DNA of 64,000 nucleotides, from NCBI GenBank assembly GCA_041389985.1, contig JAWKQS010000026.1, positions 56,412 through 120,411 on the forward strand, read 5' to 3'. A program made the position numbers and the translations under genes. The notes under the pieces are model-generated. The model searched no databases. It saw nothing but the letters and a program-made list of their open reading frames with translations, and was not told where the DNA came from. The stretch comes from a bacterium (lineage in GTDB: Bacteria; Myxococcota_A; Bradymonadia; UBA7976; UBA1532). Of the stretch, positions 26,888-28,642 are shown one piece after another (within the stretch, counting starts at the first letter, position 1; every line of letters starts with the position of its first letter).

Positions 26888-28642
26888 ATGGACGTTCTGG
26901 TCATCAACTGCGGCAGCTCCAGCCTGAAGGTCGACGTCGTGGACGCCGCCACGGGCGAACGCCGCCACCAGGCCCGCGCCGAGCGGCTGGCGGCCGGTGA
27001 GCTGGAGACCGCGCTGGCGAAGATCCTGGGCGAGGTGCCGGCCGAGCGGCTCGCGGCGGTGGGCCACCGGGTCGTCCACGGCGGCGAGCGGTTCACCCAC
27101 CCCGTCCGCATCGATGATGACGTCGAGGCCGCCATCGAGGCGCTGGTGCCCCTGGCGCCGCTTCACAACCCCGCGAATCTGCTGGGCATTCGGACGGCGC
27201 GCCGCCTGCTGCCCCACCTGCCCCAGGTGGCCGTCTTCGACACCGCGTTTCACCACACGCTGCCGCCCCGGGCGCGGACCTACGCGCTCCCGGCGGACGT
27301 GCGCGCCCGCCACGGGGTGCGGCGCTAGGGCTTCCACGGCCAGAGCCACCGGTACGTGGCCGGCCGCGCGGCCGCCTTCCTGGGCGAGGACGTGGCCAGC
27401 CTGCGGCTGATCACCTGCCACCTGGGCAACGGCGCCAGCGTCTGCGCCATCGAGTCGGGCCGCTCCGTCGACACCAGCATGGGCATGACGCCCGTCGAGG
27501 GCCTGGTGATGGGCACCCGGGCCGGCGATCTGGACGCGGGCCTGATTCTGACGCTCCTGCGCGAGGACGGCCTCGACGCCGACGGCCTCGACGCCCTGCT
27601 CAACCGCGAGAGCGGCCTCAAGGGCCTCTCGGGCGTCGGCAACGACATGCGGGACATCGAGGAGCGGGCCGCCGCCGGCGACGAGGCCTGCCGCCTGGCG
27701 CTGCATGTGTTCTGCCATCGGCTGCGCAAGTACATCGGCGCCTACGCCGCCGTGATGGGGGGCGTGGACGCCATCGTCTTCACCGCCGGCATCGGGGAGC
27801 ACAGCGCCCTCGTCCGCCACCGGGCCGCCCAGCGGCTCCAGTACCTGGGTGCGCGGCTCGACGAAGACAAGAACCGCGAGGCCCGGCTATCGGCCAGCGA
27901 GCCCGTGGTGGACATCTCGGAGCCCCACTCCCGGGTGAGGCTGCTGGTGGTGGCCACCGACGAGGCCCACGCCATCGCGGGGGATGTACAGGACCTCGTG
28001 GGCGCCCTCGACGCCGTCGAGCAGGATCTGGCCATCCCCATCGCCGTCTCGGCCCGGCACATCCACCTCTCCCCGGAGGCCGTCGAGGTGCTCTTCGGGC
28101 CCGGCCACACCCTCACCCCCCTCAAAGAGCTGAGCCAGCCGGGCCAGTACGCCTGCGTCGAGCAGCTCGATCTCATCGGCCCCCGGCGCACCATCGAGGG
28201 CGTCCGGGTCCTGGGGCCCGCCCGGGGCAAGTGCCAGGTGGAGATCTCGCGGACGGATGAGTTCTTCCTGGGCCTCGACGCCCCCGTCCGGCGATCGGGG
28301 GATGTGGCGAGCTCGCCTGGCATCACCCTGCAGGGGCCGGCGGGGCGCCTCACCCTCTCCGAGGGGGTGATCTGCGCCTGGCGCCACATCCACATGACCC
28401 CGGAAGACGCCGAGCGCTTTGGGGTGCAGGACCGCGACATCGTGGAGGTCGCCGTGGACTCCCAGGATCGCGATCTCATCTTCGGCGATGTGATGGTGCG
28501 GGTGTCGCCTGCCTACCGCCTCGAGATGCACATCGACACCGACGAGGCGAACGCGGCCGAAATCGGCCGTGATTTCAAGGGGGTACTGGTCGCGACCGGG
28601 CGGACGGCCCACCTGCGCCGTCGTGAGCCGCGCCCGGCCTGA
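26888..28642 (+). CDS. ackA: Bifunctional acetate kinase / PduL-type phosphate acyltransferase fusion, carrying an in-frame TAG at 27326-27328 that replaces the conserved Tyr of the RYGFHG motif
   Basis: MDVLVINCGSSSLKVDVVD… (the AckA start) …RHGVRR*GFHGQSHRY… (the same frame resumes after TAG; canonical is RYGFHGTSH) …EHSALVRHRAAQ…, then PduL repeats …AVSARHIHLSPE… and …ICAWRHIHMTPEDAERFGV… ORFs 26888..27328 and 27356..28642 are in the same frame. Confidence 0.8.

Follow-up and report, generated by a model that had tools for sequence, protein, structure and literature searches.

Does an in-frame TAG codon within a fused acetate kinase-phosphotransacylase gene represent an error in the assembled sequence, a recent loss of function, or a stop codon that is tolerated or used by the cell? 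The question is raised by positions 26888-28642 (+) of the window, i.e., the whole 64,000-nucleotide stretch of DNA that was analyzed, for which the initial annotation had listed a base error, a recent nonsense mutation, and read-through as possible explanations. We addressed it by examining the domain architecture of the gene, its relatives, its state of preservation, and the distribution of errors along the contig.

Domain architecture of the interrupted gene

Positions 26888-28642 (+) translate as a 585-codon frame that is broken internally only once, by the TAG at 27326-27328 (+), as the initial annotation had stated. The stop occupies the position of the Tyr in the RRYGFHG motif (context ..ARHGVRR*GFHGQSHRYV..) of the acetate kinase (Ack) domain. 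The N-terminal 146 codons of this domain (MDVLVINCGSSS...GVRR; 26888-27325, +) are colinear with a sister-species ortholog, MCB9546046.1, and the rest of the domain (27329-27979, +; Pfam match to residue 364) was recognized by PF00871, TIGR00016, and PDB 2IIR. A PduL-type phosphotransacylase domain follows at 28037-28564 (+), as identified by PF06130 (residues 384-559), NF011652, and alignment to 5CUO. The fused gene ends with a natural TGA stop at 28640-28642 (+), which is shared by the sister ortholog, likewise as codon 585. Upstream, a tRNA-Ala gene (anticodon CGC; 26757-26833, +) detected by ARAGORN ends 54 nt before the start codon of ack-pduL; this tRNA gene was found at the same place in the corresponding sister-species locus (L084). 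The antisense open reading frames are GC3 shadows of the kind expected in a genome with 72% G+C.

The domain searches were run on the translation with Tyr put in at the TAG codon. Pfam assigned residues 52-364 to Acetate_kinase (PF00871, 432.7 bits versus a cut-off of 22) and residues 384-559 to PTAC/PduL (PF06130, 254.5 bits versus 25), while NCBIfam returned ackA (TIGR00016, 412 bits versus 293.4) and phosphate propanoyltransferase (NF011652, 256.7 bits versus 209). The description of AckA and a PduL protein with two RHIH motifs as one reading frame was thereby borne out. The Ack part aligned with the acetate kinase of Thermotoga maritima (2IIR) at E = 9e-113, with the TAG falling on Tyr176, and the PduL part aligned with the PduL structure 5CUO at E = 3.9e-43. 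The ligand motifs of 5CUO (RHIHLS, QVEIS, RHIHM, and EMHID) are identical in the aligned PduL domain. In 5CUO, Zn1 is bound by His48, His50, and Glu109 and Zn2 by His157, His159, and His204 (PMC4784909). With residue numbers assigned to motifs by deduction, the zinc ligands of the window protein are predicted to be intact: the first RHIH (CGG CAC ATC CAC; 28055-28066, +), which aligns to the first RHIH of 5CUO, presumably carries the His pair of Zn1, and the second (CGC CAC ATC CAC; 28382-28393, +), which aligns to the second RHIH of 5CUO, would carry that of Zn2. As deposited, the frame is interrupted and has no aromatic residue at the stop position, both of which set it apart from an acetate/propionate kinase; the other family features tested by sequence are present.

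Two further features of the Ack domain were observed. Its N-terminal domain (window 26888-27060, residues 1-58) is ∼25 to 30 residues shorter than those of most fusion homologs and stand-alone AckA proteins. Because the short N-terminus is common to the sister species and several other relatives (e.g., P0012, P0024, and P0052), it is a natural variant and no deletion artefact. At residue 113 (27224-27226), Gln is found where 13 aligned fusion homologs have an invariant His (PHVAVFDTAF to PQVAVFDTAF), and the AckA of T. maritima has Asn at the matching position. No mismatch between the window and a conspecific assembly (L088, described below) is listed at this codon, so Gln113 appears to be a real species-level substitution.

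The fusion family and its known relatives

The initial annotation described Ack and PduL as normally separate enzymes; the family survey showed the fusion to be common. More than 120 full-length two-domain proteins carry it, and the best 120 matches of the protein search were all proteins of this kind, of ∼580 to 630 residues, from Myxococcota such as Nannocystaceae, Sandaracinaceae, Polyangiaceae, and Enhygromyxa. A scan that took one genome per species gave a colinear Ack-PduL match in at least 592 GTDB species genomes, which span Myxococcota, Bacteroidota (Lewinella), Gammaproteobacteria, Verrucomicrobiota, Planctomycetota, and others. Erbilgin et al. (2016) had already noted the PduL signature in multidomain proteins, mostly annotated as Acks, and reported that Ack-fused PduLs are without encapsulation peptides and may channel substrate (PMC4784909). 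The fusion is a widespread, previously described architecture that is unremarkable in itself. Judged from its sequence, the window locus is an ordinary ortholog of this family, in which proteins named acetate/propionate family kinase have the same two domains in the same order.

The nearest fusion, MCB9546046.1 from Myxococcales bacterium GCA_020633435.1, has 584 residues and aligns without gaps at 89% amino acid identity; the sole listed difference of the window gene is the TAG at codon 147. The flanks of the two genes are also alike: both are preceded by genes for an XPB helicase, an M74-LysM peptidase, and tRNA-Ala and followed by one for an STK-FGE-sulfatase kinase. The word-indexed protein search missed this ortholog, for whose 90% cluster a 131-aa fragment serves as representative, and it was reached only via the neighboring M74-LysM peptidase gene. 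Stand-alone AckA proteins (2IIR of T. maritima and 1G99 of Methanosarcina thermophila) align over residues 46-371, the RRYGFHGTSH motif included, whereas the window gene adds the C-terminal PduL domain and differs by its shorter N-terminal domain and the TAG interruption. The microcompartment PduL of Rhodopseudomonas palustris (5CUO) has the PF06130 signature, both RHIH motifs, and the Glu/His zinc-ligand positions in common with the window protein, in which, by contrast, the PduL domain sits at the C-terminus of Ack and is without an N-terminal encapsulation peptide. No shell-protein genes were found among the annotated neighbors in the window or in the relatives' loci, and ack-pduL of the relatives stands alone, without microcompartment genes. 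A metabolosome-associated PduL was ruled out on these two grounds, i.e., the missing encapsulation peptide and the lack of nearby shell genes.

Residue and codon at the stop position in relatives

The position of the stop was aromatic in all of the 120 best homologs, being Tyr in 114, Phe in five, and Trp in one. The Tyr that was initially called invariant is thus nearly so. At the codon level, the motif could be located in 63 related loci, of which 55 carry TAC or TAT and the remaining eight TTT or TTC; a stop codon at this position occurred in none of the 120 homologs or of these loci. The fusion is conserved in related genomes, a point that the initial annotation had proposed to check, and each ortholog is a single ORF. 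Separate genes with a natural stop at this site, which it had named as an observation that would overturn its view, were not seen in any ortholog. When metagenomes were scanned with a degenerate pattern covering the surroundings of the stop, no matches were obtained.

The closest comparisons came from two loci. The sister species (GCA_020633435.1, JACKDP010000002.1, L084) is 81.7% identical to and fully syntenic with window positions 15700-36662; its ack-pduL reads TAC at the TAG site and shows no alignment gaps over the 585 codons. TAC was also found in three more assemblies of this species, i.e., in four assemblies in total. A conspecific MAG (GCA_041390005.1, JAWKQU010000081.1, L088), which appears to belong to the same submission as the window's MAG, is 97.4% identical over window positions 15694-36893 (∼21 kb) and reads TAT at this codon. 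The third codon base therefore differs in all three sequences (G in the window, T in L088, and C in the sister species), and the T of L088 may be a real synonymous variant or one of the many C>T differences of that assembly. By this alignment evidence one base change (TAY to TAG), confined to the window's assembly, accounts for the stop, which fits the single-substitution reading given initially.

State of preservation of the gene

For ack-pduL versus the sister species we obtained a dN/dS of 0.146, and 10 intact neighboring genes gave values of 0.07 to 0.56, all but one of them ≤0.24. Across 13 homologs, 218 alignment columns are invariant; the window gene carries a different residue at 5 of these, and the homologs themselves depart at one to eight. 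Alignment to the sister ortholog revealed no second lesion or indel in ack-pduL. With no other decay in the gene, the lesion must be either very recent or not real. A long-standing pseudogene was rejected on the basis of the dN/dS like that of intact neighbors, the single lesion, and the conserved-column departures within the range of the homologs. A look for GC3 decay in broken genes gave no signal, broken and intact genes alike having values of ∼0.93 to 0.97, and a promoter and terminator scan was uninformative. Neither the protein with Tyr restored nor any of six ORFs that might represent fragments was found in the collection by exact-protein look-up.

Error load along the contig

Exact-protein look-ups placed the 120,411-bp contig in an error-rich NCBI MAG (proteins MEZ44735xx, locus tags R3F60_*), and at least 12 genes in the window are frame-broken, mostly by 1-bp indels, many of which lie at short G/C runs. 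Broken-gene regions were located at 4548-12115, 32796-34277, 43293-45885, 53001-53699, 54058-54515, and 55218-55766 on the (-) strand; others lie at 2519-3696, 29116-31507, 34291-36450, 45980-48435, and 52382-52999. The affected genes include three for Ser/Thr kinases, a giant SACS-like ORF, and genes for a Big_5 protein, a Met-zincin, a HAD hydrolase, a ThiF protein, a glyoxalase, and a beta-lactamase-like protein. A codon-position HMM detected many same-strand frame switches in the window, and in several broken genes the Pfam domains are continuous across the frame junctions of the joined segments. The junctions in the Ser/Thr kinase genes lie near 2752-2794, at 29795 and 30135, and at 35045 and further downstream; those of the HAD hydrolase gene are at 52651 and 52880, and the ThiF-family gene has at least four frame switches. 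The counterparts covered by the sister-species loci are intact, including STK-FGE-sulfatase proteins of 773 and 727 residues, a Big_5 protein of 490 residues, and a giant ORF of 2168 residues.

Direct comparison of the window with the conspecific assembly revealed disagreements in the form of G4 versus G5 near 33509-33520, an additional GA at 33983, the lack of an A at 34024-34027, CC versus CCC at 47393, and C5 versus C4 at 52651; at the indel site 35046, the assemblies have C5, C4, and GC5. We read the frame breaks elsewhere in the window as MAG assembly or consensus errors, since real genes evolving at a dN/dS of ∼0.15 would not gather so many frameshifts while the strains differ by only 36 synonymous changes. 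The Beta-lactamase2 gene contains the second in-frame stop within a domain, a TGA at 55356-55358 (-). A noisy conspecific contig (L089) is without this TGA but several indels differ there, and the TGA may be a substitution or a pair of compensating indels. Two other in-frame TGA codons were rejected as nonsense substitutions: that at 8220 follows a nearby 1-bp insertion, and that at 50045 is a natural gene end.

The errors are unevenly distributed. All 16 indels private to the window lie at 31.0 to 36.9 kb, with none at 15.7 to 31 kb, and the codon-position HMM saw no frame change at ∼12.4 to 29.7 kb. Together with the gap-free alignment to the sister ortholog, this agrees with the initial remark that the region is otherwise free of frameshifts. 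The consensus quality shifts abruptly, from no private indels in ∼15 kb to 16 in ∼6 kb, and lesion-rich and clean stretches alternate along the contig on a scale of 5 to 17 kb. Homopolymer density was considered as the cause of this clustering and rejected, as the clean stretch has 3.2 runs of at least five per kb and the lesion-rich stretch at 29.2 to 36.5 kb has 4.2 per kb.

Substitutions private to the window comprised 36 synonymous and 19 non-synonymous changes, and 37 of the 55 fall at codon position 3; the clean stretch accounts for ∼24 synonymous and ∼9 non-synonymous changes (∼73% synonymous). The window has 58 derived substitutions versus L088 in 21 kb, and the two are distinct strains. 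Because the private substitutions are mostly synonymous, they look like genuine strain polymorphism, which implies a low rate of substitution errors around the TAG. L088 is far noisier, with 216 derived substitutions spread evenly over codon positions (140 non-synonymous and 67 synonymous) and ∼180 indels, and the tRNA-Ala gene was undetected in it. Its TAT therefore cannot fix the true base at the TAG site. No motif behind the C>T differences of L088 was seen by eye, and a rough estimate gave no clear excess of three-way-differing sites that would mark shared systematic errors.

Frameshift-laden assemblies recur among the lineage MAGs that we examined. The gene for the XPB helicase is split into two ORFs in L085 (GCA_020430725.1, JAGQJI010000444.1, 748-2104), and many genes are fragmented in L088 and L089 (GCA_041390005.1). 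The peptidase cluster also included two small ENA contigs (L092 and L093), neither of which matched the window, and a literature search on the MAG accession found nothing.

Origin of the stop codon

These comparisons make it almost certain that the TAG is a private lesion, whether an error or a recent null allele, and that programmed read-through is not involved. The explanation that we narrowly prefer, with a probability of about 0.5, is that the base was miscalled, or the consensus wrongly built, in a MAG contig of long-read style that is rich in errors; a contig with such an error load could also carry a rare substitution error. Codon 147 would then be Tyr in the organism and the 584-aa enzyme would be produced normally. 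As predicted from the families, its PduL domain would interconvert acetyl-CoA plus Pi with acetyl-phosphate plus CoA, and its Ack domain would interconvert acetyl-phosphate plus ADP with acetate plus ATP. Against an error stand the local absence of private indels and the mostly synonymous character of the private substitutions there, and the same observations speak for a genuine and very recent nonsense mutation (TAC or TAT to TAG) fixed in the strain that dominates the MAG, to which we assign slightly less than even odds. Such a mutation would cut the enzyme after 146 residues, and the strain would be left without this path linking acetyl-CoA and acetate, which conspecific strains retain. In its favor, the TAG lies within the ∼15-kb stretch without indel discrepancy versus conspecific and sister sequences, the ∼73% of synonymous changes around it are the signature of polymorphism rather than error, the window and L088 are separate strains, and one lesion without further decay fits a recent event. 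Moreover, no fragment protein of ack-pduL is in the collection while its neighbors and other broken fragments of the MAG are present; this suggests to us that the locus was annotated as a pseudogene by the depositor. A null allele is harder to reconcile with the many demonstrably artefactual frame breaks of the contig, with the purifying selection on the gene in the lineage and its retention in hundreds of species, and with the TAT, rather than a stop, in the only other assembly of the species. Roughly estimated, an error would be expected to place one nonsense codon in this 1.75-kb gene at ∼1e-4 to 6e-3, and the corresponding expectation under a real, strain-private allele is ∼1e-3 to 7e-3, both figures coming from the substitution and indel counts combined with general knowledge of pseudogene frequencies. 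These expectations overlap and are of the same order, and error and real allele, two of the initially proposed options, both stand at nearly equal odds.

That the TAG is real and tolerated or used, by way of a suppressor tRNA, pyrrolysine, a reassigned TAG, or reinitiation (e.g., at GTG 27356), seems to us very improbable. The frame downstream of the TAG is perfectly kept, in-frame GTG and ATG codons occur 10 to 50 codons past it, and the PduL domain is intact; frame preservation, however, is equally expected under an error or a very recent mutation, and a restart at 27356 would give a polypeptide without the entire N-terminal domain of acetate kinase. The stop is also unconserved, with TAT within the species, TAC in the sister species, and no stop among the 120 homologs and related loci. 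TAG terminates several genes in the window (e.g., at 20415, 26693, and 38012), and the TAG stop of the M74-LysM peptidase gene (26693-26695), which is followed by the tRNA gene, is common to the sister species. No other clean in-frame TAG was seen within coding segments of the window; tRNA-Ala(CGC) is the sole tRNA gene, and ARAGORN found no suppressor tRNA within the 64 kb. With TAG an ordinary terminator and the stop private to one assembly, reassignment or a conserved, programmed read-through is excluded, and TAG reassignment and pyrrolysine were rejected on the same evidence together with the lack of a suppressor tRNA in the window. The read-through option raised by the initial annotation is accordingly not supported. 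There is little chance, too, that a real TAG yields a useful product, either by low-level UAG read-through that restores some Ack-PduL or as a reinitiated, free-standing PduL polypeptide; were this true, an uncultured myxobacterium of activated sludge would have un-fused or down-tuned its acetate switch naturally.

Other genes in the window

Three further loci were recorded. A large ORF at 61316-64000 (+), which runs past the window end, matches the shoulder domain of the eukaryotic Major Vault Protein (PF11978) and a vault repeat (PF17795), domains by which it is predicted to encode a bacterial MVP-like protein. At 23012-25562 (-), an XPB/ERCC3-type helicase gene with an XPB damage-recognition domain adjoins a gene for a DUF790 protein; the two genes are intact and conserved in the sister species, and we take the pair to be possibly an archaeal-style XPB-Bax1 helicase-nuclease pair. 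The region 12863-16254 (+) encodes a PheRS alpha subunit of ∼530 residues with a C-terminal class II core and a beta subunit with B1, B3_4, and B5 domains, both intact; this PheRS presumably resembles the long archaeal/eukaryotic type.

Significance

The locus carries little biological weight: the fusion is common and already described, and the stop is an artefact or else a null allele private to this strain. The window offers a worked example of how the error load varies along one contig, and its lesson for curation is that in-frame stops and frameshifts in MAG contigs of this kind should first be checked against assemblies of the same and of sister species, and recoding invoked only afterwards. 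If the allele is real, it would provide a small data point on strain-level loss of acetate/acetyl-phosphate metabolism in Myxococcota.
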